From assembly GCA_964386045.1 (NCBI GenBank), contig CAYLRA010000003.1, positions 9,006 through 73,005 on the forward strand: DNA of 64,000 nucleotides, written 5' to 3'. Positions 6,927-22,249 of this stretch are shown one piece after another. Source of the stretch: an uncultured Verrucomicrobiaceae bacterium. GTDB taxonomy: Bacteria > Pseudomonadota > Gammaproteobacteria > Pseudomonadales > CAMLJR01. Numbering within the stretch: the first letter of the stretch is position 1; each line of letters begins with the position of its first letter. The translations under genes were made by a program, and so were the position numbers. Below the pieces are notes generated by a model. It was given only the letters and a program-made list of their open reading frames with translations. It ran no database searches and was not told the origin of the DNA.

Positions 6927-6951
6927 GGTGGGTGCTCCTGACAACACAGGG

Positions 6952-6989: not shown

Positions 6990-7099
6990 GGGGCGCCATT
7001 GTCGGATTTTGCGGTCTGTTTTGGCTGGCCAGTTAAAAAGGGGTTGGTGTGAGGCAGGGCGAGACGAGGCAGGGCTTTGAGTGGACCGGGGGCGATGCG

Positions 7100-7183
7100 G
7101 TCATTCTGCGCGTAGCGAAGCGTAGTCGCAGAATCCATAGCACTTCATGTGGCGATGGATTCTGCGACTTCGCGCAGAATGAC
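7100..7183 (+). repeat. Nested-palindrome REP/MITE-like element, copy A
   Basis: Outer 13-bp arms GTCATTCTGCGCG / CGCGCAGAATGAC and inner 14-bp arms AGTCGCAGAATCCA / TGGATTCTGCGACT. Same architecture and orientation as 22263-22349. Ends 8 nt from the stop of the Rieske gene. Confidence 0.8.
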
Positions 7184-7191
7184 GAAGGGCG

Positions 7192-8607
7192 TCAGCTTTT
7201 CAGATAACGATCCTCTTCCTTGTGCATATTCAGAATCAGCTTCTCCTGATTATTGGCGAGCCACGTCTGCTTCATGCCGTGTGAGCACAAACCCTCCTGA
7301 ATACGCGGCAGGTTGCCGAGATCCTGACGTGGAATCAGGCCGACCTGTTCCGGGTCGGTGACATCGACCAGCGTGGCTCGCGGTGGCGTGACGGCAGCCG
7401 GGTAGGTTTTGATGGCGTGAATCTCGAAGGTGCATTGGTTGGGATCGGTCGGATGTGGCAGCGCGCGGTAGATGGCTGCGTTGCCGGCCTGGAACAGGAT
7501 CACGATGTTCGGAAACAGCACGGTGACGCCGCCCCAGCGCGCCAGCATCTCCGGTGACAGTTTCGACATCGGCCGTTTCACGGCGGCGGCATGTTCGTAT
7601 TGCAACCGCACATATTCGGCGCCGAGATTGGCGTTGGCCGGAAGCTGCTTGTTACGCAGCGTCAACAGCAGCTCGATGTCTTCCTTCAAAATCATCGCGC
7701 CGAGCCCTTCGGCGGTCAGGTTCATCCGCGCTGCCATCTCTTCCAGCCGATCTTCGATCGACTTCTGCTCGGTTTCCTGCACGTGGCCGGCGATCGGTGT
7801 CTTGTCGCCGCCGTAGAACTGGCCGTGGCCGTGGGTGAAGGCGTCGTAGGTCAGGTCCTTGTACATCATCGGGCCGTCGTCGCGGTCGCCGTAGATCACT
7901 TCGCGGCCGACCTTTTCCAGCTGCGGATGCGTGGCCGAGACGTGGTAGGCCTCGTAGAACGCCTCCTGCGCCACCTTCCAGTTGCAGGGGATGGTGGCGC
8001 GCTTCCACCAGATGTGGCGCATCTCGCCAATCGCCGTGTCGTCGAGGAACTGTTTCAGCGGCGCGATGAAATCGTCGAACGACTCCGGATCGGCAGCGAG
8101 GCTGACGAAGACGAAACCGGCGTAGACGCGGGTGTGGACCTTGCGCATCGCGACGTCGCCATCCTGCAGCTCGCCGTTGCGGAACTCCTGCCGTTCCAGT
8201 ACCAGCTTGACGTTGCCCTCCAGATCCCAGCGCCAGCCGTGGAACGGGCAGATGATCTTGCCGCCCTCGAAATGGCCGCAGCCATCGCCAAGCGTGGTGC
8301 CGCGGTGTGGGCAGAAGTTGTAGTAGGCCTGGATCGTCGAGGCGTCGGTGCGCACCACGAGAATCGACTGGTCGCCGATTTTGTAGGTGGTGTAGTCGCC
8401 CACCGCCGGCACCTCGTCGACGCGGGCGGCCACCTGCCAGACGCGGCTCCAGAGCCGGTCGAACTCCAGCTGCGCGAACGCCGGATCGGTGTAACGGCCG
8501 ACGCCGACGCCCTGCGCCAGCGTCTGCCAGCGTTTCGGCCACTCCACGGCGGGGGCTGTCGAGGGGTCGGAGTCCTTGGCAATGACGTTGCGGGAAATAG
8601 CGCTCAT
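7192..8607 (-). CDS. Rieske [2Fe-2S] non-heme iron oxygenase, alpha subunit (paralog 1)
   Basis: 471 aa. Rieske motif CPHRGTTLGDGCGHFEGGKIICPFHGW. Mononuclear-iron motif EAFYEAYHVSATHP. Confidence 0.85.
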   Translation of the reverse strand: MSAISRNVIAKDSDPSTAPAVEWPKRWQTLAQGVGVGRYTDPAFAQLEFDRLWSRVWQVAARVDEVPAVGDYTTYKIGDQSILVVRTDASTIQAYYNFCPHRGTTLGDGCGHFEGGKIICPFHGWRWDLEGNVKLVLERQEFRNGELQDGDVAMRKVHTRVYAGFVFVSLAADPESFDDFIAPLKQFLDDTAIGEMRHIWWKRATIPCNWKVAQEAFYEAYHVSATHPQLEKVGREVIYGDRDDGPMMYKDLTYDAFTHGHGQFYGGDKTPIAGHVQETEQKSIEDRLEEMAARMNLTAEGLGAMILKEDIELLLTLRNKQLPANANLGAEYVRLQYEHAAAVKRPMSKLSPEMLARWGGVTVLFPNIVILFQAGNAAIYRALPHPTDPNQCTFEIHAIKTYPAAVTPPRATLVDVTDPEQVGLIPRQDLGNLPRIQEGLCSHGMKQTWLANNQEKLILNMHKEEDRYLKS

Positions 8608-8784: not shown

Positions 8785-9642
8785 ATGAGCAACGCCGCAA
8801 CGCTGGAATCCATCGCCTCGCTGGAAGAGCGCCTGAAAGCCACCGATCTCTCGCCGCTGATCGCGAGCAAGGTTCACCTGAGCAAGCAGGCGCTGCTGAG
8901 TGGTGAATTTGCCGCCGACCTGCGCGAGCTGCTCGAACGGCGCGGTGTGCTGGTCTTCCCGAAGATCAACTTCACCGATGCCGAGCAGATCGCCTTCACC
9001 AAGACCATGGGCAAGTTCCTGCCAGAGATGGAGGGGCAGGAGATCTACAACATCACGCTCGACCAGAAACTGAATGCGAAGTCCGATTACCTGAAGGGTT
9101 CGCTCTACTGGCACGCCGACGGCACGATGAACAAGATGCCGATCGGTGTCGCCATCCTGACCAGCCACGTGCTGCCCACCTGGGGCGGCAACACCGAATT
9201 CTGCAACACCTACGCGGCTTATGAACTGCTGCCCGAGCAGGACAAGCAGCTGATCGCCAATCTGAAGGCGATGCACTCGGCGTGGACGTCGCTGTTCTAT
9301 TACGAGCCGGAGCCGAGTTATGAAAAATTGCTGGAGATGATTCGCATCGGTGAGGTGGAGCTGCCGCTGGTCTGGAACCATCGCACCGGTCGCAAGTCGC
9401 TGGTGCTCGGCTGCACCGCGCACCATGTGCTCGGCATGGACCCGACCGAGAGCACCAAGCTGCTGGTGCGCCTGCGCGACTGGGCGACGCAGCCGCAGTT
9501 CGTCTACAGCCACGAGTGGTCGGTTGGCGACGCGGTGATGTGGGACAACACCGGCACCATGCACCGCGCGATGCCCTACGACCCGGACTGCGGTCGTCTG
9601 CTGCATCGCACCAAGACGGCAGGTGAAGAGCCGATCGTCTGA
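8785..9642 (+). CDS. TauD/TfdA-family Fe(II)/2-oxoglutarate dioxygenase
   Basis: 285 aa. Has the WHADGT (HxD) facial-triad segment, a distal TGTMHRA His, and family-typical length. Confidence 0.8.
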   Translation: MSNAATLESIASLEERLKATDLSPLIASKVHLSKQALLSGEFAADLRELLERRGVLVFPKINFTDAEQIAFTKTMGKFLPEMEGQEIYNITLDQKLNAKSDYLKGSLYWHADGTMNKMPIGVAILTSHVLPTWGGNTEFCNTYAAYELLPEQDKQLIANLKAMHSAWTSLFYYEPEPSYEKLLEMIRIGEVELPLVWNHRTGRKSLVLGCTAHHVLGMDPTESTKLLVRLRDWATQPQFVYSHEWSVGDAVMWDNTGTMHRAMPYDPDCGRLLHRTKTAGEEPIV

Positions 9643-9660: not shown

Positions 9661-9702
9661 AGGCCGCGCGCGCCGGTTGTCCGGTGCGCGTGGCCTTTTT
9701 TG
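9661..9702 (+). terminator. Rho-independent terminator after the TauD-family gene
   Basis: AGGCCGCGCGCGCCGG-TTGT-CCGGTGCGCGTGGCCT forms a 16-bp stem (two G-U pairs) followed by TTTTTT. Confidence 0.8.
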
Positions 9703-9752
9703 TTTGTATGAAAAACCGTTTGTACGAAAAAACTGTTTGCACGAAAAAAATT
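9702..9752 (+). repeat. Three tandem 16-18-bp direct repeats GTTTG(T/C)A(T/C)GAAAAA...
   Basis: GTTTGTATGAAAAACC / GTTTGTACGAAAAAACT / GTTTGCACGAAAAAAATT, read directly, about 150 nt upstream of the first BVMO start. Candidate regulator-binding or DNA-bending array. Confidence 0.6.
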
Positions 9753-9904
9753 ATTTCGCATCGCCATCGACATGTTGATGCGGATCAATGAGGTGAAAAG
9801 CGGGCGTAGTAGCCTGCCGACATCAATCAACAGTGCTGTCTACAAAAATTCTTCGAAGAACTTCAGCAACACCGACGGCATCCGCACCTGCGAGGAAACC
9901 CGCC

Positions 9905-11746
9905 ATGACATGCGAAACGACGAATGTACCCCCGGTTTCGGAGATCGATATTCCGGCGATGCGCGAGAAGTACCTGCGCGAGCGCGACCGCCGCATCAAG
10001 AAGGATCACAACGATCAGTACATTCCGACCAGTGGCAAGTGGGCGAAGATCTACGAGGTCGATCCCTACCTGCCGGTGCAGCCGCGCGATCCGGTCAGCG
10101 GTGAAACCGACGTCGTCATTCTCGGCGCCGGCTACTGCGGCATGATGGTGGCAACGCAGCTGAAAAAGGCGGGGATCGACAGCTTCTACAACATCGATCA
10201 TGGCGGCGATTTCGGCGGCACCTGGTACTGGAACCGCTACCCCGGCATCCAGTGCGACAACGACGCCTACTGCTACATGCCGCTGCTGGAAGAGACCAAT
10301 TACATGCCGTCGAAGAAGTTCACCGACGGCTACGAGATCCAGCACCACTGCCGCATCATCGCCGAGACCTTCGGCTTGTATGAAAACGCGCTGTTCCACA
10401 CGCTGATCAAGACGCTGAAGTGGGATGCCTCGCTCAACCGCTGGCGTGTCGGTACCAACCGTGGCGACGACATCAAGGCGCGTTTCGTCGTGCTGGCGAT
10501 GGGACCATTGAACAAGCCGAAGCTGCCCGGTATTGCCGGCATCGACAGTTTCAAGGGGCATCTGTTTCACACCGCGCGCTGGGATTACGACTACACCGGC
10601 GGCGAGTGGCGCAATCCGGTGTTGTCGAAGCTGGCCGACAAACGCGTTGCCATCATCGGCACCGGTGCCACCGCCATTCAGGTGGTTCCCTATCTCGGCA
10701 AATACGCCAAGGAGCTCTATGTCATCCAGCGCACGCCGTCGAGTGTCGACGCGCGCAACAACAAGCCGACCGATGTCGAGTGGTACAAGTCGCTGCAGCC
10801 CGGCTGGCAGGAGGAGCGCATCAGGAACTTCCACCACGCCGCGATGGAAATGCTGGCGCCGGGTGAACCCGATCTGATCTGCGATATCTGGACCGAGATC
10901 AGCCGCAATCTGTCGGAAGAGTTCGGTCGTGACGGCTGGCCGCAGACACCGGCCGAGTTCGCCGCCAAACGCGAGGTGATGGACTATCGCGTGATGGCGC
11001 GTCTGCGCCGCCGCGTCGACGAGATCGTCAATGATCCGGCAACGGCCGAGGCGCTGAAACCCTACTACCGTTTCCTGTGCAAGCGCCCGTGCTCGAATGA
11101 CAACTACTATCCGACCTTCAACCAGCCCAACGTCAAGCTGATCGATGTCGCTGCCACGCAGGGTGTGGAGCGGATGACCGAGAAGGGTTTTGTCGCCAAT
11201 GGGGTGGAGTACGAGATCGACTGCATGATCTTCGCCTCGGGTTACGAGGTGACCAACGATCTCGATCGCCGCTGGGGTATCGACGTCATCGAAGGGCGCG
11301 AAGGTCTGTCGATCTACGACTACTGGCGCGAAGGGTTCCAGACCTTCCAGGGGATGATGGCGCACAACTTCCCCAACATGTTTTTCACCGGCTTCACCCA
11401 GGCCGGCGCCAGCGCCACCAACTCCAAGACCTTCATCGACCAGGGTTTCCACATCGGCCACATCGCCAGCGAGGCGTTGAAGCGTGGCGCTGTCACCGTC
11501 GAGCCGACCCAGGAGGCGCAGGAGGCCTACATCAGGCATCTGCGTTCGGTCGCGGTCGACAACTCGACCTTCACCACCGAGTGCACGCCGTCCTACTTCA
11601 ACAACGAAGGTGATACCACCAAGAAACGTTTCATCTTTGGCGAACCGTGGGGCGAGGGTTACTACGCGTTCGAGGAGATGCTGCAGCAGTGGCGCGACGG
11701 GGGCGATCTCGCCGGCCTGAAACTCACCACGGGCAGTGACAGATAA
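9905..11746 (+). CDS. Baeyer-Villiger-type flavin monooxygenase (type I BVMO), paralog 1
   Basis: Start set at the ATG at 9905 (MTCETTNVPPVSEIDIPAMREKY), which aligns with the start of paralog 2. FAD motif ILGAGYCG, GGTWYWNRYPGIQCD, BVMO fingerprint FKGHLFHTARWD (FxGxxxHxxxW[D/P]), NADP motif IIGTGATA. Confidence 0.85.
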   Translation: MTCETTNVPPVSEIDIPAMREKYLRERDRRIKKDHNDQYIPTSGKWAKIYEVDPYLPVQPRDPVSGETDVVILGAGYCGMMVATQLKKAGIDSFYNIDHGGDFGGTWYWNRYPGIQCDNDAYCYMPLLEETNYMPSKKFTDGYEIQHHCRIIAETFGLYENALFHTLIKTLKWDASLNRWRVGTNRGDDIKARFVVLAMGPLNKPKLPGIAGIDSFKGHLFHTARWDYDYTGGEWRNPVLSKLADKRVAIIGTGATAIQVVPYLGKYAKELYVIQRTPSSVDARNNKPTDVEWYKSLQPGWQEERIRNFHHAAMEMLAPGEPDLICDIWTEISRNLSEEFGRDGWPQTPAEFAAKREVMDYRVMARLRRRVDEIVNDPATAEALKPYYRFLCKRPCSNDNYYPTFNQPNVKLIDVAATQGVERMTEKGFVANGVEYEIDCMIFASGYEVTNDLDRRWGIDVIEGREGLSIYDYWREGFQTFQGMMAHNFPNMFFTGFTQAGASATNSKTFIDQGFHIGHIASEALKRGAVTVEPTQEAQEAYIRHLRSVAVDNSTFTTECTPSYFNNEGDTTKKRFIFGEPWGEGYYAFEEMLQQWRDGGDLAGLKLTTGSDR

Positions 11747-11757
11747 GGAGTGAAGCG

Positions 11758-13146
11758 ATGGACAAGCGCAGCAACATTACCGCAGAGCAACTTGCCGAGC
11801 CGCTGCTGATCCCGGTCGAGGCATTCATTTCGAAGGAGTACGCGCAGGCCGAAGGCGACCGGCTGTGGGCGAAGGTGTGGCAGCAGGCCGGTCGGGTCGA
11901 AGAGATTCCCGAAGTCGGCAACTACATCACCTACGAGATCTGCAACGATTCGATCCTGATCGTGCGCACCGCGCCGGACACCATCAAGGCGTACCACAAC
12001 GTCTGCACGCATCGCGGTCGTCGCCTCGTCAGCACGCCGGAAGGCGCACACAGTGCGAGTGGCCAGAAGACGAAGTTCGTCTGCGGTTATCACGCGTGGA
12101 ACTTCGATCTCGATGGCAAGGCGACCTACATCCTCGACAAGGATGACTGGAAGGGTGCACTGACCGAACGCTGTACCAGCCTGCGCGAAGTGAAGGTCGA
12201 TACCTGGGGTGGTTGGATCTTCATCAACATGGACCCGCAGTGCGAACCGCTACGTCAGTATCTTGAACCGGTCGCGACGCTGCTCGATCCGTTCGAATTT
12301 GATCGGATGCGTTACCGCTTCCGCGTCTGGGGCATCTTCGACTGCAACTGGAAAGTGGCGCTCGAAGCGTTCCTCGAACCCTATCACGTCGCCGGCACGC
12401 ATCCGCAGCTGACCAAATATGGCGATTTCTACGCGTGGAGCCGCGCGCTCGGTCGCCACGGTCACGACGGCTACGACACCCGCCAGCACAAGGTGGAAGG
12501 CGAGGGTGCATCGGTCGACACCAGCGTGCATCGCGCCGCGAAGGGCAACGATGCGCGTGTGTCGATCGCGCAGATGCAGATGGAGTTCTGGGAGACGATC
12601 GGCGCCGCGACCACGGAGACGCTGGTAAAGGCAGCGCAACGTCTGGTCGACGAGTTGCCGGAGGGTACGCCGGCGGCAGATGTGCATCATCACTGGCTCG
12701 AATCGGCCAAACGCGACGATGCGGCGCGCGGCGTGGTCTGGCCAGAGATATCCGATAAACAGATGACGGATGCCGGACTGGCGCAGAGTGTTTTCCCGAA
12801 CATGAACCTGCTGCCGGGGCCGACCTTCCTGCTCTATTACCGCGTGCGTCCCTACGGTGGCGACCCGGATAAATGTATCTACGAAGCCGTTGCGCTCGAT
12901 CGTTTCCCCGGGGGGCAGGCGCCGCAGACCGAGTGGACGTTTCTGCCGCAGGACCCGGAGCAGTGGCCCTATGTCATCGGTCAGGACATTTCGAACATGG
13001 TCGAGGTGCAGAAGGGGATGAAGTCGCGCGGCTTTCCCGGCTGCCTGCCCAATCCGTGGCAGGAGCGCAAGGTCAGCAACCTGCACCGCAATCTGGCCGA
13101 GTTCATGGGAGACGGTGCGCCGCAGCTGCTCGACGGAAGGCAGTAA
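11758..13146 (+). CDS. Rieske non-heme iron oxygenase alpha subunit (paralog 2)
   Basis: 462 aa, starting 11 nt after the BVMO stop. Motifs CTHRGRRL...CGYHAW and EAFLEPYHVAGTHP. Confidence 0.85.
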   Translation: MDKRSNITAEQLAEPLLIPVEAFISKEYAQAEGDRLWAKVWQQAGRVEEIPEVGNYITYEICNDSILIVRTAPDTIKAYHNVCTHRGRRLVSTPEGAHSASGQKTKFVCGYHAWNFDLDGKATYILDKDDWKGALTERCTSLREVKVDTWGGWIFINMDPQCEPLRQYLEPVATLLDPFEFDRMRYRFRVWGIFDCNWKVALEAFLEPYHVAGTHPQLTKYGDFYAWSRALGRHGHDGYDTRQHKVEGEGASVDTSVHRAAKGNDARVSIAQMQMEFWETIGAATTETLVKAAQRLVDELPEGTPAADVHHHWLESAKRDDAARGVVWPEISDKQMTDAGLAQSVFPNMNLLPGPTFLLYYRVRPYGGDPDKCIYEAVALDRFPGGQAPQTEWTFLPQDPEQWPYVIGQDISNMVEVQKGMKSRGFPGCLPNPWQERKVSNLHRNLAEFMGDGAPQLLDGRQ

Positions 13147-13241
13147 CAGCACTGCAGCGTGCGGGGCGGGTCGACGCAATGGTTGACCCGCCCCGGGCGG
13201 TGTTTAGAATCGGGCCTCTTTCACCAGCCCGAGTGCGCGCC

Positions 13242-13742
13242 ATGACCGATTTCGTTTCTGCCGAGTGCGGCATCCGCCAGCTGCATGCCCGCTTCGTCGA
13301 CGCGGTGTTTCGCAAGGATGCCGACGCCTTCGCCAATTGCTTCGCCGACAACGCCGAGTGGAAGATCGCCGGCCTGCACATTCGCGGTCGCGAAGAGATT
13401 CGCACCATGATCGGCAAGTTGCTTGGCACCTGTGCTCGCGTCCAGCTCATCGTCGGCCTGCCGCTGCTGGAGGTTGGCAATGGCGAGGCGCAGGGGCGCA
13501 TCCCCGTCACCGAGCTGGCCAAGATGAACGACGGCAGCACGGCGCTGACACTGGGTGTTTACCATGATCTCTACACCGAAGCGGATGGCCGCTGGCTGTT
13601 TCAGTGGCGCCACTTCAGCCTGCACTATCGCGGCCCCTCCGATCTCTCCGCCGCGCTGGTCGACTCGCCCGACTACGGCCCGTTCCCCGGCAGGCCGGCA
13701 GCGGACGAACCGACGCAGACGCGCAGAGCACCGGTCAATTGA
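13242..13742 (+). CDS. NTF2-fold / SnoaL-like small protein
   Basis: Start trimmed to the ATG at 13242 (MTDFVSAECGIRQLHARFVDAVFRKDADAFANCFADNAEWKI...). About 166 aa, with the pattern typical of SnoaL/DUF4440-type NTF2-like proteins. Confidence 0.55.
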   Translation: MTDFVSAECGIRQLHARFVDAVFRKDADAFANCFADNAEWKIAGLHIRGREEIRTMIGKLLGTCARVQLIVGLPLLEVGNGEAQGRIPVTELAKMNDGSTALTLGVYHDLYTEADGRWLFQWRHFSLHYRGPSDLSAALVDSPDYGPFPGRPAADEPTQTRRAPVN

Positions 13743-14494
13743 TAGCGAAAAACGGTGAGTCGGCGAAGCTGGTCAAGTCGGCCATTCGCACGATGCAGTT
13801 GTACACGGTGTTCGCCGAGAAGCGGCGCCCGCTGTCGCTGGGCGAGCTGGCGGAGGCGATGAAGGCGCCGAAGAGCAGTTGCCACGAGCTGGTGCAGACG
13901 CTGATCCACCTCGGCTACATCCTCGCCATCGACGGCGGCAGGAGCTATTACCCGTCGAAGCGGCTGCTCGACATGGCGCAGCGGATCGGCGAGTTCAACC
14001 CGGTCAAGGAGAAGATCCAGAACGAACTGCGCCGGCTGCGCGATGCCACCGGCGAGACCATCTTCATCGGCCGGCTGCAGGGGGCGCAGGTGGTCTACCT
14101 CGAAGTCTTCGATGGCACCCACACCGTCCGGTACAACGCACACCCCGGCGACCTGAAGTCGATCCACGCCAGCGCACTGGGCAAAGCGCTGCTGGCCAAT
14201 CTGGACGAGAGTGTGCGCGACCAGCTGATCGCCGAACTGAAATTGACCCGCTTCAACGAGCACACCATCACCCGCAAGAAGGATCTGAAAGAGAATCTTG
14301 CGCAGGGCGAGCGCGATGGCGTCCACATGACGCTGGGCGAGCACCTGGCCGAGGTGATGGGACTGGCCGTGCCGATCACGGTGCAGGGGCACCGCATGGC
14401 GATCGGCATGGCCGGCCCGATTCCCCGCATGCAGAAGAACCTCTCCTCCTGCACCCGGCTGCTGAAAGAGGCTGCCGCCGTCATCACCGCCTGA
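13739..14494 (+). CDS. IclR-family transcriptional regulator
   Basis: The wHTH region (VKSAIRTMQLYTVFAEKRRPLSLGELAEAMKAPKSSCHELVQTLIHLGYI) is followed by an IclR effector domain. There is no in-frame ATG upstream of the HTH, so I propose the TTG at 13739, which overlaps the preceding stop. The start is uncertain. Confidence 0.7.
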   Translation: MIAKNGESAKLVKSAIRTMQLYTVFAEKRRPLSLGELAEAMKAPKSSCHELVQTLIHLGYILAIDGGRSYYPSKRLLDMAQRIGEFNPVKEKIQNELRRLRDATGETIFIGRLQGAQVVYLEVFDGTHTVRYNAHPGDLKSIHASALGKALLANLDESVRDQLIAELKLTRFNEHTITRKKDLKENLAQGERDGVHMTLGEHLAEVMGLAVPITVQGHRMAIGMAGPIPRMQKNLSSCTRLLKEAAAVITA

Positions 14495-14558
14495 CCGCCT
14501 GGTTGAAAATCCGCCGGGTATCCGCAAGAATCCGATCGCGTTTGTGTTTGCGTAGATT

Positions 14559-14576
14559 TGTTCGCACATGCGAACA
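14559..14576. promoter_or_regulatory. Perfect 18-bp palindrome TGTTCGCA-CA-TGCGAACA (candidate operator)
   Basis: Read directly. Lies in the 116-bp gap between iclR and the SDR-BVMO2-Rieske3 genes, about 35 nt upstream of the SDR start. Confidence 0.45.
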
Positions 14577-14610
14577 GTAACTTTGATCGGACAGCGATGA
14601 CGGGGGTTTC

Positions 14611-15369
14611 ATGAGCGGGTTGACCAATAAAGTGGCCGTGGTGACGGGCGGGGCGGCGGGAATCGGGGCGGCGGTCTGCCGCTTTCTGGCGCGCGATGGT
14701 GCCGATATCGCCATCTGGGATCGCAATGTCGAGGCCGCGCAGGAGGTGGCGCGGGAGGTCGAGGCGCTGGGGCGGCGCGTGCTGGTCTGTGCCGTCGACG
14801 TCGCCAGCCGGCGCGATATCGAAGCCGCCGCGCAGCGGGTGCGGGCCGAACTGGGGCCGGTGGCGATCCTGGTCAACAACGCCGCCATCTCGCCCGAGAA
14901 GGATTTCGTCGAGATCAGCGACGACGATTGGGACCGGGTCTTCGACATCAACCTGAAGGGCACCTTCCTCTGCACCCAGGTGCTGATCGGCGACATGATC
15001 GCGGCGCGCTGGGGGCGCATCATCAACATCTCCTCGTCGAGTGCGCAGTCCGGTGCCCGTCGCATGGTCCACTACGCGGCCACCAAGGGCGGTGTCATCG
15101 CCTTCACCAAGTCACTGGCGCAGGAGATGGGGCCGCTGGGGATCACGGTGAACAACATCCCGCCGAGCACGGTCTACACCGACGGGTTGAAGTCGGTCGA
15201 GGCGCGTCTCGAAGGTGGCATTCAGGGCTACGTCAACAACACCATCCCGGTGAAACGGGTGGGCCAGCCCGAGGACATTGCCAACGCCGTCGCCTTCCTC
15301 GCCTCCGAGGCCTCGGGTTACATCACCGGCCTGACGCTCAGCGTCAACGGTGGCCGTTACATGCAGTGA
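14611..15369 (+). CDS. Short-chain dehydrogenase/reductase (FabG-like)
   Basis: 252 aa. Motifs TGGAAGIG, NNAAI and catalytic YAATK. Confidence 0.85.
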   Translation: MSGLTNKVAVVTGGAAGIGAAVCRFLARDGADIAIWDRNVEAAQEVAREVEALGRRVLVCAVDVASRRDIEAAAQRVRAELGPVAILVNNAAISPEKDFVEISDDDWDRVFDINLKGTFLCTQVLIGDMIAARWGRIINISSSSAQSGARRMVHYAATKGGVIAFTKSLAQEMGPLGITVNNIPPSTVYTDGLKSVEARLEGGIQGYVNNTIPVKRVGQPEDIANAVAFLASEASGYITGLTLSVNGGRYMQ

Positions 15370-15510
15370 CCCGGTCGGCTCAGCAGTAGACAACACTGTT
15401 GATTCACAATACCATCGGTTGCATCCGCCGACGGCCCTCTGTGCCGTCGGCAAGGGTTCCACGCTGAACCAGATCGGCCCCGGACAAGCGACGAGAGACC
15501 AGAGACCGCC

Positions 15511-17373
15511 ATGACCTGTAAAGCCACCAACATTCCGTCCCCCGCAGAGATCGACATTCCGGCGCTCAAGGAAAAATACGAACACGAGCGCGTCATTCGC
15601 ATTCGGCCCGATGGTCAGAAGCAGTACTCCAAGATCAAGCAGGAATTCAGCGAGGAGTACATCCACGATCCGCACATGCCGGTGGTGCCGCGCGATCCGA
15701 TCATCGAGGATCTCGACGTCGCCGTGCTCGGTACTGGTTTTTCCGGTGTGCTCGCCTCCTATCACCTGAAGAAGGCCGGCGTGACCAATTTCCGCAACAT
15801 CGACCACGGTGGTGACTGGGGCGGTGTCTGGTACTGGAACCGCTATCCCGGCATCCAGTGTGACAACGACGCCTACTGCTACCTGCCGCTGCTGGAAGAG
15901 ACCGGCTTCATGCCGTCGAAAAAGTACTCGGACGGCAGCGAGATCCACGATTACATCAAGCAGATCGCCAACCAGTTCGGTCTCGCCGACGGCGCGCTGT
16001 TCCACACGCTGGTCACCTCGCTGCGCTGGGATGAGGGCATCAAGCGCTGGCGCGTCGGCACCAACCGCGGCGACGAGATCCGCGCCCGCCACGTGATCAT
16101 GGCCAACGGCCTGCTCAACATCCCCAAGCTGCCGGGCATTCCGGGCATCCACGACTTCAAGGGCAAGATGTTCCACACCTCGCGCTGGGAGTACGACTAC
16201 ACCGGCGGCAGCTATCGCAACCCGGTGCTGGACAGGCTGGCCGACAAGCGTGTGGCGATCATCGGTACCGGCGCCACGGCGATCCAGGCGGTTCCCTACC
16301 TCGGCAAGTACGCCAGGCAGGTTTACGTATTGCAGCGCACGCCATCGGCGGTGGACCAGCGCCACAACGCCCCCACCGATCCCGAGTGGGTGAAGAGCCT
16401 CAAGCCGGGCTGGCAGAAAGAGCGCATCGCCAACTTCCACCACGCCGCGGTGGAGGGGCGCCTGCGTCCCGGTGAAGATGACCAGGTGTGCGACTTCTGG
16501 ACCGAGATCAGCCGCAACATGGCGGCCGAGCTGCGCGCCGCCGGTATCGAGGAGACCATCACCATCGAGGATTATTTCGCCCGTCGCGAGGTGATGGACT
16601 TCCAGGTGATGGAGCGCATGCGCCGTCGCGTCGATGCGCTGATCGAGGACAGGGAGACCGCCGAGAAGCTGAAGGTCTGGTATCGCTTCCTGTGCAAGCG
16701 TCCGCTCTCCAACGACGATTACTACAACGCCTTCAACCGTCCCAACGTCGAGCTGATCGATGTGTCGGCGACACAGGGCGTGGAGCGCATGACCGAGAAG
16801 GGCTTCATTGCCAATGGCCAGGAGTACGAAATCGACTGCATGATCTTCGCCAGCGGTTTCGAGGTGAGCAGCGACCTGGATCGCCGCTGGGGCATCGACA
16901 CCTTTGAAGGCCGCGATGGTGTCTCCATCTACGAACACTGGGCGCTCGGCTACAAAACCTTCCATGGTGTGATGACCACCGGGTTCCCGAACCAGTACTT
17001 CATCGGTTATTACCAGGGCGGCCTCAACGGCAGCACCACCGAGCAGTATGGCCAGCAGGGTTACCACATTGCCTACATCATCAAGGAAGCGCTGGCACGC
17101 GGTGCGGCGGCGGTGGAGCCGAGCGAGGAGGCGCAGGCTGCCTACGTGCAGAAAATTCGCGAGACGGCGATCGATATCTCCGACTTCCTCAACCAGTGTC
17201 CGCCCGGTTACTACAACAACGAAGGCAAGAAGGTCACCGACGACGAAGGCAAGGAGCGATTCCGCTACGCGCTGGGTGAAACCTATGGTCCCGGTTGGGA
17301 CGCCTTCGAACAGTGGATGCAGGAGTGGCGGGACCAGGGGGACCTCGAAGGTCTCGTATTGAAATCCGACTGA
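15511..17373 (+). CDS. Baeyer-Villiger-type flavin monooxygenase, paralog 2
   Basis: 620 aa, collinear with 9905-11746. Motifs VLGTGFSG, GGVWYWNRYPGIQCD, FKGKMFHTSRWE, IIGTGATA. Confidence 0.85.
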   Translation: MTCKATNIPSPAEIDIPALKEKYEHERVIRIRPDGQKQYSKIKQEFSEEYIHDPHMPVVPRDPIIEDLDVAVLGTGFSGVLASYHLKKAGVTNFRNIDHGGDWGGVWYWNRYPGIQCDNDAYCYLPLLEETGFMPSKKYSDGSEIHDYIKQIANQFGLADGALFHTLVTSLRWDEGIKRWRVGTNRGDEIRARHVIMANGLLNIPKLPGIPGIHDFKGKMFHTSRWEYDYTGGSYRNPVLDRLADKRVAIIGTGATAIQAVPYLGKYARQVYVLQRTPSAVDQRHNAPTDPEWVKSLKPGWQKERIANFHHAAVEGRLRPGEDDQVCDFWTEISRNMAAELRAAGIEETITIEDYFARREVMDFQVMERMRRRVDALIEDRETAEKLKVWYRFLCKRPLSNDDYYNAFNRPNVELIDVSATQGVERMTEKGFIANGQEYEIDCMIFASGFEVSSDLDRRWGIDTFEGRDGVSIYEHWALGYKTFHGVMTTGFPNQYFIGYYQGGLNGSTTEQYGQQGYHIAYIIKEALARGAAAVEPSEEAQAAYVQKIRETAIDISDFLNQCPPGYYNNEGKKVTDDEGKERFRYALGETYGPGWDAFEQWMQEWRDQGDLEGLVLKSD

Positions 17374-17385
17374 CAGGTGAGAGTC

Positions 17386-18786
17386 ATGAACAAGAAAACA
17401 GATATTCCGGTTCAGGACAGAATTGCACTCACGGATGCCGATCTGGCCGAGCCGCTGACCTATCCGGTCGATGCGTTCCTCTCGCAGGAGTACGCCGATG
17501 CGGAGATGGAGAAGCTCTGGTCGAAGGTGTGGCAGATGGCTGGCCGCGTCGAGGATATTCCGGAGGTCGGCAATTTCCTGACCTACAACATCCTCGACGA
17601 ATCGATCGTCATCGTGCGCACCGCGCCCGATACGCTGCGCGCCTATTACAACGTCTGCCCGCATCGCGGTCGCCAGCTGGTCAACACGCCGGATGAGGTC
17701 AACTGCGTCAAGGGCAAGAAAAAGAATTTCGTCTGCGGCTTCCACGGCTGGACCTTCAACCTCGACGGCCAGAACACGCACATCCTCGACAAGCAGGATT
17801 GGAAAGGGGCGCTGGAAGATGAGTCGCGCACCTGCCTCTCCGAGCTGAAGGTCGATACCTGGGGTGGCTGGATCTACGTCAACATGGATCCGGAGTGCGA
17901 GCCGCTGCTCGAATTCCTCGGCGAGGTCGATCGCATCCTCGGCCCGTTCCAGTTCGACAAGATGCGTTACAAGTGGCGGCAGTGGGCGATCTACCCCTGC
18001 AACTGGAAGACCGCCATCGAAGCGTTCATGGAGCCCTACCATGTCGCCGGCACCCACTCGCAATTGCTGAAGTACGGACAGTTCTACGCCTACAGCAAAC
18101 CGTACGGCCTGCACGGGGTCAGTGGTTTCGATGAGCGCGATTCCAGCCAGAAAACCAGTCAGAGTACGTCGGTGACCCGCGCCGGTCTCGGCGACCCGCG
18201 TATCTCCACCTATGAGCTGGCACGCGAAAACTACGAGACGGTCAACTACGCCGCCTCGACCGAAACGTTAGTGAATGCCGCCAAGCGTCTGAAAGATGAA
18301 CTGCCCGAGGGCACGCCGGTGCAGGAGGTGCTGTCGCACTGGCTGAAATCGGCGAAGGCCGACGATGCCAAGCGCGGTGTCATCTGGCCGGAGCTGACGC
18401 CGGCGCAGCAGTCTGAAGCGGGGCTGGCGTGGAGCCTGTTTCCGAACCAGACGATTCTGCAGGGCATCACGTTCGCACTCTGTTATCGCGTGCGGCCGTA
18501 CGGTCGCGATCCGAACAAATGTATTTTCGAATCCTATGCGCTGGAGCGTTTCCCGGAAGGCCAGGAACCAAAGGCCGAGTGGGTCTATGCCGAGCCGACC
18601 GCCGAGAAGTGGGGCGCGGTACTGGCGCAGGATTTCGCCAACATGGAGTGGGTACAGCGCGGGATGAAGTCGCGCGGTTTTCGCGGCACGCTGCCCAACC
18701 CGCACCAGGAGCAGAAGATCACCAACTTCCACCGCCATCTCGCCCGGTTCATGGGCACAGGCGCACCGCGCCTGATAAAAAAATAG
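17386..18786 (+). CDS. Rieske non-heme iron oxygenase alpha subunit (paralog 3)
   Basis: ATG at 17386 (MNKKTD...), 12 nt after the BVMO2 stop (the ORF track starts at GTG 17377). Motifs CPHRGRQL...CGFHGW and EAFMEPYHVAGTHS. Confidence 0.85.
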   Translation: MNKKTDIPVQDRIALTDADLAEPLTYPVDAFLSQEYADAEMEKLWSKVWQMAGRVEDIPEVGNFLTYNILDESIVIVRTAPDTLRAYYNVCPHRGRQLVNTPDEVNCVKGKKKNFVCGFHGWTFNLDGQNTHILDKQDWKGALEDESRTCLSELKVDTWGGWIYVNMDPECEPLLEFLGEVDRILGPFQFDKMRYKWRQWAIYPCNWKTAIEAFMEPYHVAGTHSQLLKYGQFYAYSKPYGLHGVSGFDERDSSQKTSQSTSVTRAGLGDPRISTYELARENYETVNYAASTETLVNAAKRLKDELPEGTPVQEVLSHWLKSAKADDAKRGVIWPELTPAQQSEAGLAWSLFPNQTILQGITFALCYRVRPYGRDPNKCIFESYALERFPEGQEPKAEWVYAEPTAEKWGAVLAQDFANMEWVQRGMKSRGFRGTLPNPHQEQKITNFHRHLARFMGTGAPRLIKK

Positions 18787-18922: not shown

Positions 18923-20671
18923 ATGTCCGTACCTGTCTATGAGCGCATCATCCATCTGCTCGAAGCCGAAGGCATCAACACGCTGTTCGGCATTCCCGAT
19001 CCGGGTTTCATCCATATGTCCATGGTGTGCGAAAAGCGCGGCTGGAAAGTGACCGCCCCACACCACGAACAGAACGGCGCGTTCATGGCCGATGCGTGGT
19101 CGCGCATGACCGGCAAGCCGGGTGTCTGTTTCGGCACCCAGGGCCCCGGTGTTTCCAACCTCGCCACCGCGATGATCGTGGCGAAGAAAGAGGGTTCGCC
19201 GACCATTTTCTTCGGCGGCAACCGTTCGCGCACGGCCAACCAGCGCGCTCGTGTCGGTCGCATCCAGTACATGAACCAGCTCGACCACTTCAAGCCGCTG
19301 GTGAAATACGCCGCGATCATTGAAGAGCCGGATCAGACCGACGAGATCATTCGCGAGGCGATCCGTCAGTGCACCACCGGCAAACCCGGCCCGGTCTACA
19401 TCGAGCTGCCGCTCTCCGTCATTCACGAAACCTGGAAGTGGCCGCCGGTGCAACCGCCGGAGAAGTACCGCATGGTCGAACAGGCCGCCAGCGGCAACAT
19501 GATCAAGAAGGCGGTCGAGCTGATCAAAGCGGCCAAGAACCCGGTCATGCTGGTGGGACAGGGCATGTTCACCTCGCGTTCGCATGCGCTGGTCGCGCAG
19601 CTGGCCGAGAAGCTGGATTGCCCGATCCTGCAGACCTCCGGTTGCTCGATGACCATCAAGGGTCAGGAAGAGCGCACGTTTGCCTACGGCTTCTCTCCCG
19701 CCGGTCGCGCGGCTGCCAGCGAATCCGATCTCTGCATCGCCATCGGTACCGAACTGGGTGAGCCGGTGCACATGGGCATCGGCCGTCACTGGGAAAAAGG
19801 CGACGCCAATCGCAAGTGGATCTATGTCGAGCGCGATGCCGCCGCGATCGGCGTGAACCGTCCCATCGATGCGCCGCTGGTCGGCTGCATGCGCGACATC
19901 ATTCCGCAGCTGCTCGAAGCGCTGGGTGATCTCCAGCGCACCGGCAGTGCTGAATTCGCAAGCTGGAAAGTGATGCAGAAGGAGTGGCGCGCCAAGCTGC
20001 TCGCGGAAGTGCCGACCGGCGGTGCCAAGGTTCACCCGGCGCGCCTGATCGTCGAGGCGACCAAGGTGATTCCGGGCGACGCGATCTACGCGGCGGACGG
20101 CGGCTCCACCACCATCTACGGCTGGACCTATTCGCAGTACAAACCGGAGGATCTGGTCTGGAACCAGAACACCGGCCATCTGGGTACCGGCCTGCCCTAC
20201 GCCATCGGCGCGGCGCTGGCGACCGACGGCAAGCGTCCTGTGGTCTTCGTCACCGGCGACTCCTCGTTCATGTTCTCGCTGAACGAACTGGAGACCGCCG
20301 TGCGCAAGAAGCTGCCGATCGTGACGGTGGTGGCGTGCGACTACGCCTGGGGTCTGGAAGTCGGTTGCTGGAAGAAGCAGGTCGGCCCGGATTCGCCGGA
20401 GACCGAAGCGCACTGGGGCAACTGGGTGCGTTTCGACAAGATCGCCGAAGGTTTCGGTGCGGAAGGTCACTACATCGAGCGCGAAGAAGATATCGCGCCG
20501 ACGGTCGCCGCAGCCATCGAGCGCGCCCGCGCCACGGGCAGGCCGGTGGTGATCCAGGTGCCGGTCGATCCCTACGCCAACGCCATGGACGCGCCGAACT
20601 ACGAGGAGTTCAAATCCTGGTACACCGACTTCAAGGCCGGTTACGGCGCTGAAGCGGAAGATGCTTACTGA
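18923..20671 (+). CDS. Thiamine-diphosphate-dependent enzyme (acetolactate-synthase-like fold), paralog 1
   Basis: 582 aa. The N-terminal Pyr domain (YERIIHLLEAEGINTLFGIPDPGF...HEQNGAFMADAW...GPGVSNL) and the C-terminal PP domain with GDSSFMF...VVACDYAWG give a three-domain ThDP-enzyme layout. Confidence 0.8.
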   Translation: MSVPVYERIIHLLEAEGINTLFGIPDPGFIHMSMVCEKRGWKVTAPHHEQNGAFMADAWSRMTGKPGVCFGTQGPGVSNLATAMIVAKKEGSPTIFFGGNRSRTANQRARVGRIQYMNQLDHFKPLVKYAAIIEEPDQTDEIIREAIRQCTTGKPGPVYIELPLSVIHETWKWPPVQPPEKYRMVEQAASGNMIKKAVELIKAAKNPVMLVGQGMFTSRSHALVAQLAEKLDCPILQTSGCSMTIKGQEERTFAYGFSPAGRAAASESDLCIAIGTELGEPVHMGIGRHWEKGDANRKWIYVERDAAAIGVNRPIDAPLVGCMRDIIPQLLEALGDLQRTGSAEFASWKVMQKEWRAKLLAEVPTGGAKVHPARLIVEATKVIPGDAIYAADGGSTTIYGWTYSQYKPEDLVWNQNTGHLGTGLPYAIGAALATDGKRPVVFVTGDSSFMFSLNELETAVRKKLPIVTVVACDYAWGLEVGCWKKQVGPDSPETEAHWGNWVRFDKIAEGFGAEGHYIEREEDIAPTVAAAIERARATGRPVVIQVPVDPYANAMDAPNYEEFKSWYTDFKAGYGAEAEDAY

Positions 20672-20824
20672 AGCGTTGTACGGACTGATCGGTTGCAATA
20701 ATCGCGTCGCTGCTTAAGATCACCGCTCGGCTATAGATCATCGACACGGTTATTTCAGACATCTGTCACTTATAGCCGGCGCATCGTCGCCGGCTATCTG
20801 CTTATAAAGAGGATGGTTCTGCTC

Positions 20825-22249
20825 ATGCGCGAATACCTGAAGTTCTACATCGACGGCCAGTGGGTCGATCCGATCGAATTCAAGACGGTCAACCCGATCA
20901 ACCCGGCGACCGAAGAGCCGTCGGGCACCATCGCCCTCGGTGGCGTTGCCGATGTCGATCGCGCTGCCAAGGCGGCTCGCAAGGCTTTCGCCAGCTGGTC
21001 GCGCACCACGCGTGAAGAGCGCGTCGCGGTACTGGAGCGCATTCTCGCCGAGTACCAGAAGCGTTCGGCCGATCTGGCGAGCGCGGTAACCGAAGAGATG
21101 GGAGCACCGAAGGGGCTGGCCGGCGGTTTCCATATCGGCCTCGGCGCCGGTCACCTGACCACCGCCATCGAAGTGCTGAAAGCCTTCAAGTTCGAAGAGC
21201 TGCGCGGCCAGACCATGATCGTCAAGGATCCGATCGGCGTGGTCGGCATGATCACGCCGTGGAACTGGCCGATCAACCAGGTCACGGTCAAGGTGTTCCC
21301 GGCGCTGGCCGCCGGCTGCACCGTGGTGCTGAAGCCGTCGCAGGAGTCGCACTACTCGGCGCAGATTCTCGCCGAGATCTTTGATGCGGCGAAGGTGCCG
21401 GCCGGTGTCTTCAACATGATCCAGGGTCGCGGCTCGGTGGTGGGCGATGCGATTGCGCGCCATCCGGATATCGATATGGTGTCGATTACCGGTTCCGAAG
21501 GCGCCGGTATCGAAGTTGCGAAAGCGGCAGCAGACACGGTCAAGCGCGTTTGTCAGGAACTCGGTGGCAAAAGCGCCAACATCATTCTGGATGACGGTGA
21601 TTTCGCGCAGAACGTCGCCAAGGGCGTGGTCGGCATGATGGTCAACTCCGGCCAGACCTGCAGCGCCACGTCGCGCATGCTGGTGCCGAAGGCGCGCATG
21701 GAAGAGGCGATGCGCGTGGCGAAAGAAGCTGTTGCTACGGTGACGGTCGGCGATCCCAATACCGACGTGGCGATGGGCCCGGTGGTGTCGAAGTCGCAGT
21801 ACAACTCGATCCAGGATTACATCCGCAAAGGGATTGAAGAGGGCGCCACGCTGGTTGCAGGCGGTCCTGACCGTCCGGAAGGTCTGAACAAAGGCTGGTA
21901 TGTGAAGCCGACGGTGTTTGGCAATGTCACTAATCAGATGATCATTGCGCGCGAAGAGATCTTCGGGCCAGTGCTGGTCATCATTGGTTATGACAATGTC
22001 GATCAGGCCATCGAAATCGCCAACGATTCGCCGTTTGGTCTGGCAGGTAATGTCGCCGGTGCCGATTTGGAGAAGGTGCGCGCGGTTGGTCGCCAGATTC
22101 GTTCGGGCTGGGTTTCGCTCAATGACGGCTTCGACTTCCACGCGTCGTTCGGTGGCTACAAGAAGAGCGGTAACGGGCGCGAGTGGGGCGAGTTTGGTTT
22201 CCACGAATATCTGGAGATCAAGTCGCTGCTGGGTTATCAGCCTCAGTAA
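20825..22249 (+). CDS. NAD(P)-dependent aldehyde dehydrogenase
   Basis: Start at the ATG at 20825 (MREYLKFYIDGQWV), with AAGAGGA about 11 nt upstream. Motifs ELGGKSA and catalytic-Cys GQTCSATSR, with FGPVL near the C-terminus. Confidence 0.85.
   Translation: MREYLKFYIDGQWVDPIEFKTVNPINPATEEPSGTIALGGVADVDRAAKAARKAFASWSRTTREERVAVLERILAEYQKRSADLASAVTEEMGAPKGLAGGFHIGLGAGHLTTAIEVLKAFKFEELRGQTMIVKDPIGVVGMITPWNWPINQVTVKVFPALAAGCTVVLKPSQESHYSAQILAEIFDAAKVPAGVFNMIQGRGSVVGDAIARHPDIDMVSITGSEGAGIEVAKAAADTVKRVCQELGGKSANIILDDGDFAQNVAKGVVGMMVNSGQTCSATSRMLVPKARMEEAMRVAKEAVATVTVGDPNTDVAMGPVVSKSQYNSIQDYIRKGIEEGATLVAGGPDRPEGLNKGWYVKPTVFGNVTNQMIIAREEIFGPVLVIIGYDNVDQAIEIANDSPFGLAGNVAGADLEKVRAVGRQIRSGWVSLNDGFDFHASFGGYKKSGNGREWGEFGFHEYLEIKSLLGYQPQ

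Follow-up and report, generated by a model that had tools for sequence, protein, structure and literature searches.

A recurrent pair of Baeyer–Villiger monooxygenase and Rieske oxygenase genes, duplicated and preceded by a shared operator-like site in a candidate catabolic island

Among the described systems closest to the locus reported here, the chn, cpn and cdd/cpd cycloalkanone clusters combine an alcohol dehydrogenase, a Baeyer–Villiger monooxygenase (BVMO), a lactonase of the alpha/beta hydrolase type and an aldehyde dehydrogenase (ALDH) under one regulator. The PockeMO/CPDMO/PtlE clade of BVMOs accepts bulky polycyclic ketones, and the Rieske oxygenases CntA (carnitine monooxygenase) and Stc2 (stachydrine demethylase) act by hydroxylation on the carbon beside a heteroatom. 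For most BVMOs and Rieske oxygenases the physiological substrate is not known, and little is understood of how saturated polycyclic terpenoids are degraded (PMC4498894, PMC13599519). Here we analyze a 64,000-nucleotide stretch (hereafter the window; contig CAYLRA010000003.1 of assembly GCA_964386045.1, from an uncultured Verrucomicrobiaceae bacterium) in which a preliminary description had pointed out two collinear gene pairs, each consisting of a BVMO gene followed by a gene for a Rieske non-haem iron oxygenase alpha subunit. In Alpha- and Gammaproteobacteria the BVMO–Rieske pair is passed on as one unit with strictly matched subtypes, and so it is, with the gene order reversed, in Actinomycetota. 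The component families are all known; what appears to be new is an unrecognised co-evolving enzyme pair with its own operator in a catabolic oxygenase cluster.

The first pair comprises BVMO1 (9905–11746, 613 aa from its ATG, within a longer frame that begins with GTG at 9833) and Rieske1 (11758–13146, 462 aa), and the second BVMO2 (15511–17373, 620 aa) and Rieske2 (17386–18786, 466 aa, with an alternative GTG at 17377), all on the plus strand. With the ATG starts, all four are exact called genes on one public NCBI assembly contig, and the 90% clusters of the four proteins contain Spongiibacteraceae and Zhongshania proteins, which identifies the source of the window as a marine Cellvibrionales bacterium. 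The G+C content at third codon positions is 78–84% in the four frames, which are therefore coding. The genes are separated by 11 nt in the first pair (TAA..ggagtgaagcg..ATG, with AAGGAG overlapping the stop) and by 12 nt in the second (TGA..caggtgagagtc..ATG), and both gaps hold a Shine-Dalgarno sequence. That the pairs are collinear duplicates was borne out by the open reading frames (ORFs), their translations, the identities of the products (60% over 619 columns for BVMO1 and BVMO2, 59% over 457 columns for Rieske1 and Rieske2) and a single blastn alignment (68.7% identity) joining 156–3205 of pair 1 to 156–3245 of pair 2 through the gene junction. The duplication is ancient, since the identity at third codon positions of the two pairs is just 52–59%. 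An NTF2-like gene (13242–13742), an IclR regulator (ORF 13604–14494) and a short-chain dehydrogenase/reductase (SDR) gene (14611–15369) lie between the pairs, as had been described. The N-terminal signature MTCxxTNxP...EIDIPA, noted earlier as common to the two BVMOs, is real but is a feature of the whole BVMO clade and not specific to the two paralogues.

Conservation of the pairing was assessed by a scan of one genome per species with the Rieske alignment alone, which yielded at least 553 confirmed relatives distributed over soil sphingomonads, marine Cellvibrionales, Steroidobacter relatives and actinobacteria. The best 80 loci were kept, BVMO and Rieske positions in them were mapped by tblastn, and the counts refer to Rieske1/2-family genes with enough flank. 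A BVMO gene is found directly upstream, on the same strand, of 58 of these 83 genes. The carriers of the pair include Novosphingobium, Sphingobium, Sphingomonas, Caulobacter and Rhizomicrobium, and further Halieaceae, Cellvibrionaceae, Porticoccaceae, Steroidobacter relatives and Solimonas. The partners are matched by subtype: a B2-type BVMO is paired only with an R2-type Rieske protein (16/16) and a B1-like BVMO only with an R1-type one (26/26), and the pairwise identities of BVMO and Rieske proteins correlate (r = 0.75). In the reverse scan, in which metagenome contigs were searched with the BVMO alignment, several of the 13 BVMOs at 55% identity or more had a Rieske neighbor, and none of the approximately 67 at 43–52% identity had one. 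The proposal that the pairing is conserved in other genomes thus withstood the test of non-adjacency, given the frequency of adjacency (58/83), the strict subtypes, the correlated identities and the shared operator (see below).

The conserved translational coupling that had also been proposed was not upheld. Across the loci the ORF-based gap between the BVMO and Rieske genes has a median of 38 nt and a 90th percentile of ∼119 nt, and the order is reversed (Rieske before BVMO) on a Rhodococcus plasmid and on some metagenome contigs. No BVMO–Rieske fusion was found in the 150 best representatives, the longest of which has 605 aa. Overall, the partnership is a functional one that does not depend on obligatory translational coupling, and both enzymes of a pair may act on the same scaffold, as had been proposed.

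Both pairs of the window are preceded by an operator-like site: AATCAACAGTGCTGTCTAC at 9825–9843 (plus strand), 72 nt upstream of the BVMO1 start, and AATCAACAGTGTTGTCTAC on the minus strand at 15386–15404, 115 nt upstream of the BVMO2 start. In full, the site reads as the palindrome AATCAACA-N4-TGTTGATT, and the pattern AATCAACAGTG(C/T)TGTCTAC has two sites in the window as compared with 0.01 expected by chance. Exact copies of the core TCAACAGYGYTGT number 26 in the 2.28 Mb made up of the window and the loci, and 23 of them lie 31–115 nt upstream of a BVMO start, in Alpha- and Gammaproteobacteria and at both pairs of the window. With two mismatches or fewer allowed, a site was detected upstream of 55 of 80 in-clade BVMOs, none of 68 out-clade BVMOs and 10 of 2000 random windows. 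As the operator is common to both pair types and to both proteobacterial classes, it places them in one kind of regulon.

A candidate for the cognate regulator is encoded between the pairs. The IclR-family gene (13739–14494, plus strand; Pfam HTH_IclR and IclR_C) has an uncertain start, its ORF opening at 13604. Translation from the TTG at 13739 gives 251 aa (the IclR protein of L082, the closest metagenome relative, has 250 aa); this TTG overlaps the TGA stop of the preceding SnoaL gene (13739–13742, caaTTGAtag), and the longest ORF, from 13604, overlaps the SnoaL gene by 139 nt. If translation starts at this TTG, the regulator would be coupled to the transcription unit formed by BVMO1, Rieske1 and SnoaL. 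An IclR-type regulator probably binds the shared operator. In the complete genome of Halioxenophilus aromaticivorans KU68F (L053) an exact operator core at 13566–13578 lies ∼150 nt upstream of the genes for a thiamine diphosphate (ThDP)-dependent enzyme and the ALDH (ThDP1-ALDH) and not of a BVMO gene, which suggests that the regulon extends to this partner operon. Upstream of the first operator, the window has a terminator-like hairpin after the TauD gene (9661–9696, plus strand; a 16-bp stem with 13 GC pairs and a T tail) and then, at 9702–9748, three tandem copies of a 16–17-nt unit with the core GTTTGYAYGAAAAA. This triple repeat was considered as a conserved operator and rejected; it is absent from all other loci apart from one degenerate copy in L082 and represents a local expansion.

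We found no description of a BVMO–Rieske module in the searchable literature, outside of which most subscription journals lie, and Rieske proteins go unmentioned in a survey of how BVMOs evolved; this agrees with the earlier remark that the pair was not recognised as a described pathway module. Three independent marks, the strictness of the pairing, the constancy of the partner genes and the common operator, define a BVMO subclade and an uncharacterised Rieske subfamily. Vague 'oxidoreductase' annotations become a testable regulon, through whose operator and IclR regulator the inducer, and with it the substrate, could be sought directly. New chemistry of ring or chain cleavage may be found in the pairs, which could also serve in the biocatalysis of bulky ketones.

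By their sequences, both flavoproteins qualify as type I Baeyer–Villiger monooxygenases (class B flavoprotein monooxygenases). BVMO1 contains GAGYCG, GGTWYWNRYPGIQCD, FKGHLFHTARWD, GTGATA and CKRP, and BVMO2 has the same motifs. Both dinucleotide-binding motifs (GxGxxG for FAD and GxGxxG/A for NADPH) are present, with glycines that are 100% conserved in 62 BVMOs from related loci. FKGHLFHTARWD fits the fingerprint FxGxxxHxxxW[P/D] and GGTWYWNRYPGIQCD fits [A/G]GxWxxxx[F/Y]P[G/M]xxxD, the two proteins sharing GGxWYWNRYPGxxCD and FxGxxxHxxxWD; the G, H, R, W and final D of the fingerprint and motif are 79–100% conserved in the same set. The Arg of CKRP and the Asp of QCD, conserved in 100% of the set, we take to be the equivalents of the catalytic R337 and D66 of PAMO, an assignment made from the motifs; the PAMO alignment covers BVMO residues 64–565.

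The two BVMOs resemble the PockeMO/CPDMO/PtlE clade in length (∼610–650 aa), in an N-terminal extension of ∼65 residues and in the possession of all BVMO motifs; PockeMO (5mq6) aligns over query residues 8–608 with an E-value of 1e-116. The PtlE model (NCBIfam NF045818) matches end to end, with 620.7 bits for BVMO1 and 605.4 bits for BVMO2, but the cut-off is 1100 bits, so that neither protein qualifies as one of the PtlE/PntE neopentalenolactone/pentalenolactone D synthases. They also differ from the clade in forming a separate subclade marked by a Rieske partner and a specific operator, both of which are missing from the neighboring BVMO clades at 43–52% identity, and in a setting that is catabolic rather than biosynthetic.

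In the Rieske proteins, the [2Fe-2S] ligands C83-x-H85 and C109-xx-H112 are invariant in alignments of 50 and 98 sequences, as are H210 and H215 of the mononuclear iron site and D410, a candidate carboxylate ligand. PF00355 scores above its cut-off and PF00848 (Ring_hydroxyl_A) reaches 74.7–82.5 bits against a cut-off of 24.9. The Glu of LEPYH occupies the bridging position before the first iron His, as in the CntA group. By sequence, the match of Rieske1 to solved structures is limited to the Rieske half (residues ∼20–220). A fold search with its AlphaFold2 model (pLDDT 86.8) returned CntA as the nearest structure (E 1e-23, target TM 0.8), and also Stc2; the identity in the fold alignments is 17–18% to CntA and 17–20% for CntA and Stc2 together. 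The best NCBIfam match of all three Rieske proteins of the window (the third is introduced below) is GbcA (NF058607), at 122–132 bits confined to the N-terminal half and with a cut-off of 670 bits, so that these scores, and for Rieske1 the 17–18% identity, speak against their being GbcA or CntA proper. The likeness to the CntA/Stc2/GbcA group thus consists of the best fold and NCBIfam matches, the Glu at the bridging position and the lack of a classical beta-subunit gene. On the other hand, the identity is just 17–20%, the sequence match is confined to the Rieske half, the proteins of the window are ∼100 residues longer with a helical insertion at ∼240–330, and their context is without amine or one-carbon genes. 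Rieske1 and Rieske2 represent an uncharacterised subfamily of Rieske monooxygenases, probably of the beta-less (alpha3) type. A Ring_hydroxyl_B (beta subunit) gene is absent; an NTF2-like SnoaL_4 gene follows Rieske1 and is present in 19 related loci, and its product may have a beta-subunit-like role.

The pairs are embedded in an island that spans ∼50–24184, an extent we adopt because the genes on its left side, for the CoA-transferase, SDR, propeller and thioesterase, are found again in 6–22 loci. From left to right, and on the plus strand unless stated otherwise, the island begins with a family III CoA-transferase (50–1264; Pfam CoA_transf_3, E 8e-128; homologues with 68–84% identity in 10 related loci), an SDR of 303 aa (3235–4146; adh_short; homologues with at least 64% identity in 22 related loci, including the Rhodococcus plasmid), an SMP-30/gluconolactonase-like beta-propeller of 530 aa that is a candidate lactonase (4201–5793; SGL, Vgb_lyase) and a 4HBT-type thioesterase (5812–6234; 4HBT; in 6 related loci). 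Propeller homologues with 53–77% identity occur in 13 related loci, usually beside BVMO-Rieske-ThDP-ALDH genes. A third Rieske alpha subunit, Rieske3 (7192–8607, minus strand; Rieske and Ring_hydroxyl_A), 29% identical to Rieske1, is divergent from the gene of a TauD/TfdA-family Fe(II)/2-oxoglutarate dioxygenase (8785–9642; PF02668, E 1e-52, 180 bits against a cut-off of 27), a layout conserved in gammaproteobacterial loci. The nearest solved relatives of this dioxygenase are the 2,4-dichlorophenoxyacetate (2,4-D) dioxygenases 5j92 and 5bke, it does not reach the taurine dioxygenase equivalog (94 vs 313), and its gene is linked to the type-1 pair in many loci. Between the pairs, the SnoaL_4 protein (13242–13742; 166 aa) is 84% identical to the product of the L082 gene, and the SDR of 252 aa (14611–15369; adh_short_C2, E 1e-61) has homologues with 71–81% identity beside type-2 pairs.

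Downstream of the second pair are ThDP-dependent enzyme 1 of the acetolactate-synthase-like superfamily (18923–20671), the ALDH (20813–22249; Aldedh, E 6e-146), which follows the ThDP gene in most type-2 loci, and ThDP-dependent enzyme 2 (22457–24184, minus strand), which forms the right edge of the island and has homologues with 60–93% identity directly after type-2 pairs elsewhere. Both ThDP proteins have the N-terminal, middle and C-terminal TPP_enzyme domains of Pfam. Their PDB relatives span acetolactate synthase (ALS), BbmA, OXC and 2-hydroxyacyl-CoA lyase (HACL), the best PDB matches of ThDP1 are catabolic ALS and HACL/OXC, and both stay below every NCBIfam equivalog cut-off among the models listed (best 283 vs 509). 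For the ALDH, the betaine-aldehyde dehydrogenase model gives 372 bits (cut-off 668.6). None of the proteins reaches a curated equivalog cut-off among the models listed. To the right of the island lie the housekeeping genes miaE, lpxH-like, ppiB, glnS and cysS.

From Rieske3 to ThDP2 both L082 and Pseudomaricurvus sp. HS19 preserve the synteny of the island, in the order Rieske3 (minus), TauD, BVMO1, Rieske1, [SnoaL, IclR, SDR], BVMO2, Rieske2, ThDP1, ALDH, ThDP2 (minus). Each pair type has fixed partners. The type-1 pair is accompanied by the TfdA-like dioxygenase and the third Rieske protein, and the type-2 pair by the SDR, a ThDP enzyme, the ALDH and often the propeller, as well as by CoA-transferase, thioesterase, CoA-ligase and hydratase genes. 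In Alphaproteobacteria type-2 pairs are additionally found with SnoaL, an SMP-30-type propeller, IclR, a CoA ligase and a MaoC hydratase. The Rhodococcus plasmid carries a reordered set (propeller, SDR, Rieske, BVMO, SDR, ThDP, ALDH, TauD, NTF2) together with genes for a CoA-transferase, an acyl-CoA dehydrogenase and an adenylating enzyme, and a Sphingobium plasmid has the same gene set in another order. Neighbors in related loci also include acyl-CoA dehydrogenase, thiolase and beta-oxidation-type genes and TonB-type receptors.

Several features of the related loci and of the window are recorded here for their own sake. In some sphingomonad and gammaproteobacterial loci (L021, L039, L006 and L029) an extra Rieske paralogue, 48–56% identical to Rieske1, stands beside the pair, giving BVMO-Rieske-Rieske or Rieske-BVMO-Rieske operons; in L006 an operator is found upstream of the extra Rieske gene. 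Two contigs of metagenome-assembled genomes labelled 'uncultured Verrucomicrobiaceae' (L001 and L002) contain the same island with 85–89% protein identity to the window, and L002 also shares its upstream gene order; probably these bins are misassigned or the island was transferred very recently. Between the thioesterase and Rieske3 genes, where L082 diverges, ∼950 bp (6235–7191; G+C ∼57%) are without a convincing ORF and may mark where the island was joined by recombination; a hairpin and sites resembling promoters are seen around 6938–6989.

We give about an even chance to the reading in which the two pairs supply the central oxygenases of a single catabolic island, coordinated in its transcription, with which a Spongiibacteraceae/Zhongshania-like marine gammaproteobacterium degrades an alicyclic or methyl-branched, terpenoid-like compound. 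That the substrate is probably of this kind we judge from the clade of the BVMOs, from how many oxygenases there are and from accessory genes of the lipid type. In such a pathway the Rieske monooxygenase, served by a reductase/ferredoxin encoded elsewhere, would hydroxylate an unactivated C-H, an SDR would convert the alcohol to a ketone, and the partner BVMO would insert oxygen to give a lactone or ester. This product could then be opened by the propeller lactonase, or cleaved oxidatively by the next oxygenase, and the resulting aldehyde would be oxidised by the ALDH. The TfdA-like dioxygenase, SDR, ThDP enzyme and ALDH might trim branched acids by one carbon in a manner resembling alpha-oxidation, and the CoA-dependent enzymes would complete the degradation. 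The two pairs would act at different positions or rings of one pathway. The preliminary description had named two substrate variants as one possibility; this is less likely than two steps of one pathway, because the pair types are ancient, have their own fixed partners, co-occur in many genomes and are preceded by one operator. The catabolic, alicyclic or terpenoid-like reading agrees with the neighbors (propeller, SDRs, ALDH, CoA-transferase, thioesterase, CoA ligase, MaoC hydratase, acyl-CoA dehydrogenase) and with a BVMO clade nearest to PtlE and PockeMO.

In its overall logic the island resembles the cycloalkanone clusters, with genes for an SDR, a BVMO, an ALDH and a candidate lactonase grouped around a single regulator. 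It differs from them in having a Rieske protein as the fixed BVMO partner and two BVMO steps, in the nature of the candidate lactonase (an SMP-30-type propeller instead of an alpha/beta hydrolase) and in the addition of ThDP enzymes, a TfdA-like dioxygenase, SnoaL and the CoA-transferase/thioesterase. The SMP-30/SGL propeller at 4201–5793, a predicted lactonase present in 13 loci, is the sole hydrolase candidate for a cluster of the cycloalkanone type. With the PhyH/2-hydroxyacyl-CoA lyase/ALDH route of peroxisomal or bacterial alpha-oxidation and with the Oxc-Frc pair, the island has in common a 2-oxoglutarate dioxygenase, an ALDH and a family III CoA-transferase that recur in the island, and a ThDP enzyme related to HACL/OXC (E 1e-43 to 1e-49). 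In contrast to alpha-oxidation, the dioxygenase of the window is of the TauD/TfdA family rather than PhyH, and the ThDP enzymes score at least as well on acetolactate synthases.

Several observations weigh against the terpenoid-degrading island as formulated above. Approximately 30% of the Rieske family members have no adjacent BVMO. L082 carries different genes upstream of Rieske3, which means that the island's left part is not linked to the rest in every case. Neither the 64-kb window nor the recurrent neighbors include a gene for a reductase or ferredoxin, the electron-transfer partners of the Rieske proteins being presumably encoded elsewhere in the genome. As the ThDP enzymes match no characterised equivalog, their role in alpha-oxidation is a guess. 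We found no substrate, transcript or activity record for any family member. Finally, the BVMO-to-Rieske gene order and the CntA/Stc2 folds fit a Rieske step after the BVMO equally well.

A Rieske step placed second leads to a different scheme, an oxidative ester cleavage that needs no hydrolase: the BVMO would act first, the Rieske oxygenase would hydroxylate the alkoxy carbon of its product, and the acyloxy-hemiacetal would fall apart to a carboxylate and an aldehyde or ketone, with the ALDH next. If true, this would make irreversible the opening of 5- or 6-membered lactones that otherwise re-close. The usual order, BVMO then Rieske and often tightly spaced, is consistent with it, as is the ALDH after type-2 pairs. 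CntA and stachydrine demethylase cut C-N by hydroxylating the adjacent carbon with release of an aldehyde, the Glu of LEPYH stands at the bridging position as in the CntA group, and the adjacent TauD protein is closest to TfdA, which also cleaves via hydroxylation next to a heteroatom. However, an identity of 17–18% to CntA is too low for transfer of a reaction, a recurrent lactonase-like protein implies that a hydrolytic route exists, the actinobacterial loci have the Rieske gene first, and we know of no precedent for ester cleavage by a Rieske oxygenase. We consider this scheme doubtful. Somewhat more doubtful is its broadest form, that the BVMO–Rieske pair constitutes an unrecognised two-enzyme device for C-C cleavage, in which the ester or lactone breaks without a hydrolase, and that the regulon serves saturated polycyclic or branched terpenoids. 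Were it so, a widespread class of such terpenoids would have its missing pathway in this regulon, whose palindromic operator is shared by sphingomonads and marine Cellvibrionales.

A step further down in probability we place an acyloin route, in which the Rieske oxygenase hydroxylates alpha to a ketone and the BVMO makes a hydroxy-lactone that opens to an aldehyde-acid, or an SDR forms a 1,2-dione that is cleaved by a ThDP enzyme, the ALDH in either case leading to a dicarboxylate. The set of Rieske, BVMO, SDR, ThDP enzyme and ALDH covers every activity needed, and cyclohexane-1,2-diol metabolism, which runs via 2-hydroxycyclohexanone monooxygenase, provides a precedent. Cyclohexane-1,2-dione hydrolase and benzaldehyde lyase are retrieved among the solved relatives of the ThDP enzymes, though not as best matches; acetolactate synthases and HACL/OXC score higher than the dione hydrolase.

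The remaining rivals are unlikely. For the degradation of quaternary ammonium or other heteroatom compounds, the Rieske proteins would be GbcA/CntA-like dealkylases, TauD a butyrobetaine-hydroxylase-like enzyme, the flavoproteins N- or S-oxygenases and the ALDH of the betaine-aldehyde type. The GbcA match of all three Rieske proteins (122–132 bits, N-terminal half), the CntA and Stc2 folds and the 372 bits of the ALDH on the betaine-aldehyde dehydrogenase model point in this direction, but the scores are far under the cut-offs (670 and 668.6), the flavoproteins have a conserved BVMO fingerprint with W-D and the catalytic Arg, and the recurrent neighbors are lactonase-like, MaoC hydratase, acyl-CoA dehydrogenase, thiolase and CoA ligase genes rather than one-carbon or amine genes. 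An even less probable view regards the pairs as tailoring enzymes of secondary metabolism, like PtlE in pentalenolactone biosynthesis. The succession of hydroxylase, SDR, BVMO and TauD-family 2-oxoglutarate dioxygenase mirrors PtlH-PtlF-PtlE-PtlD, which work on an alicyclic terpenoid acid, PtlE is the best family match of both BVMOs (620.7 and 605.4 bits) and TauD weakly matches PtlD (79 bits), these being the best or near-best named families. On the other hand, both scores are under the equivalog cut-offs (1100 and 550), the hydroxylase of the window is a Rieske and not a 2-oxoglutarate enzyme, and no biosynthetic core enzymes occur in the island; terpene synthase, polyketide synthase and nonribosomal peptide synthetase genes are absent from it and from the related loci. 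Beta-oxidation-type genes and TonB-type receptors are the neighbors, and the genes reside on large plasmids of Sphingobium and Rhodococcus. Finally, it is highly improbable that the BVMO-like flavoprotein is the NADPH-dependent electron donor of its Rieske partner, a role that would explain the missing linked reductase or ferredoxin and that agrees with the strict 1:1 co-inheritance, since the BVMO fingerprint, the catalytic Arg (CKRP) and the Asp (QCD) conserved in 62 sequences argue for retained Baeyer–Villiger chemistry, no fusion was seen in the 150 best representatives, and in sphingomonads it is common for electron-transfer partners to be shared and encoded at other places in the genome.

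A number of more specific leads were followed and abandoned. A steroid or bile-salt link through Novosphingobium sp. Chol11 was rejected, as KshA is not among the solved relatives of Rieske1 and the window contains no steroid core genes; the Rieske enzymes studied in this strain are KshA homologues (10.1101/2021.06.24.449856). Catabolism of abscisic acid or other apocarotenoids, for which degrading Rhodococcus and Novosphingobium strains exist but no known gene cluster to compare, amounts to a substrate guess only. The Ambrox/labdanoid pathway of Sphingomonas is P450-based and reported not to be clustered (PMC13599519), and no link to it was found; the enzymes of the riboflavin/lumichrome cluster (PMC12752717) differ. 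BbmA and CsmA as a lead to the role of the ThDP enzymes gave no usable literature, and the annotations of the Sphingobium and Rhodococcus plasmids gave generic product names only.

Elsewhere in the window, an exosortase/PEP-CTERM-type exopolysaccharide locus (30616–43094) has a G+C content of 55–58%, lower than that of the island. It includes genes for an 845-aa TPR protein (30616–33153), an EpsH exosortase-DUF3485 fusion (34698–36305), a ParA-like ATPase (38664–39488) and a Poly_export/SLBB protein (42510–43094), and several ORFs without a Pfam match. Two c-di-GMP-I riboswitch aptamers, at 44753–44842 and 47689–47770, score 47.3 and 43.5 bits, above the Rfam gathering threshold. The former is located upstream of ORFs 44965–45777 and 45854–47410, both without a Pfam match, and the latter just upstream of a two-partner secretion (TPS) system consisting of a ShlB/FhaC-type transporter (47891–49531) and a 3576-aa TPS-domain exoprotein (49519–60249). 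The exoprotein gene has a G+C content of ∼70%, as compared with ∼62% in the rest of the window, and is followed at 60246–62497 by an ExbB-like protein fused to Laminin_G_3 and DUF2341 domains and then by ExbD.

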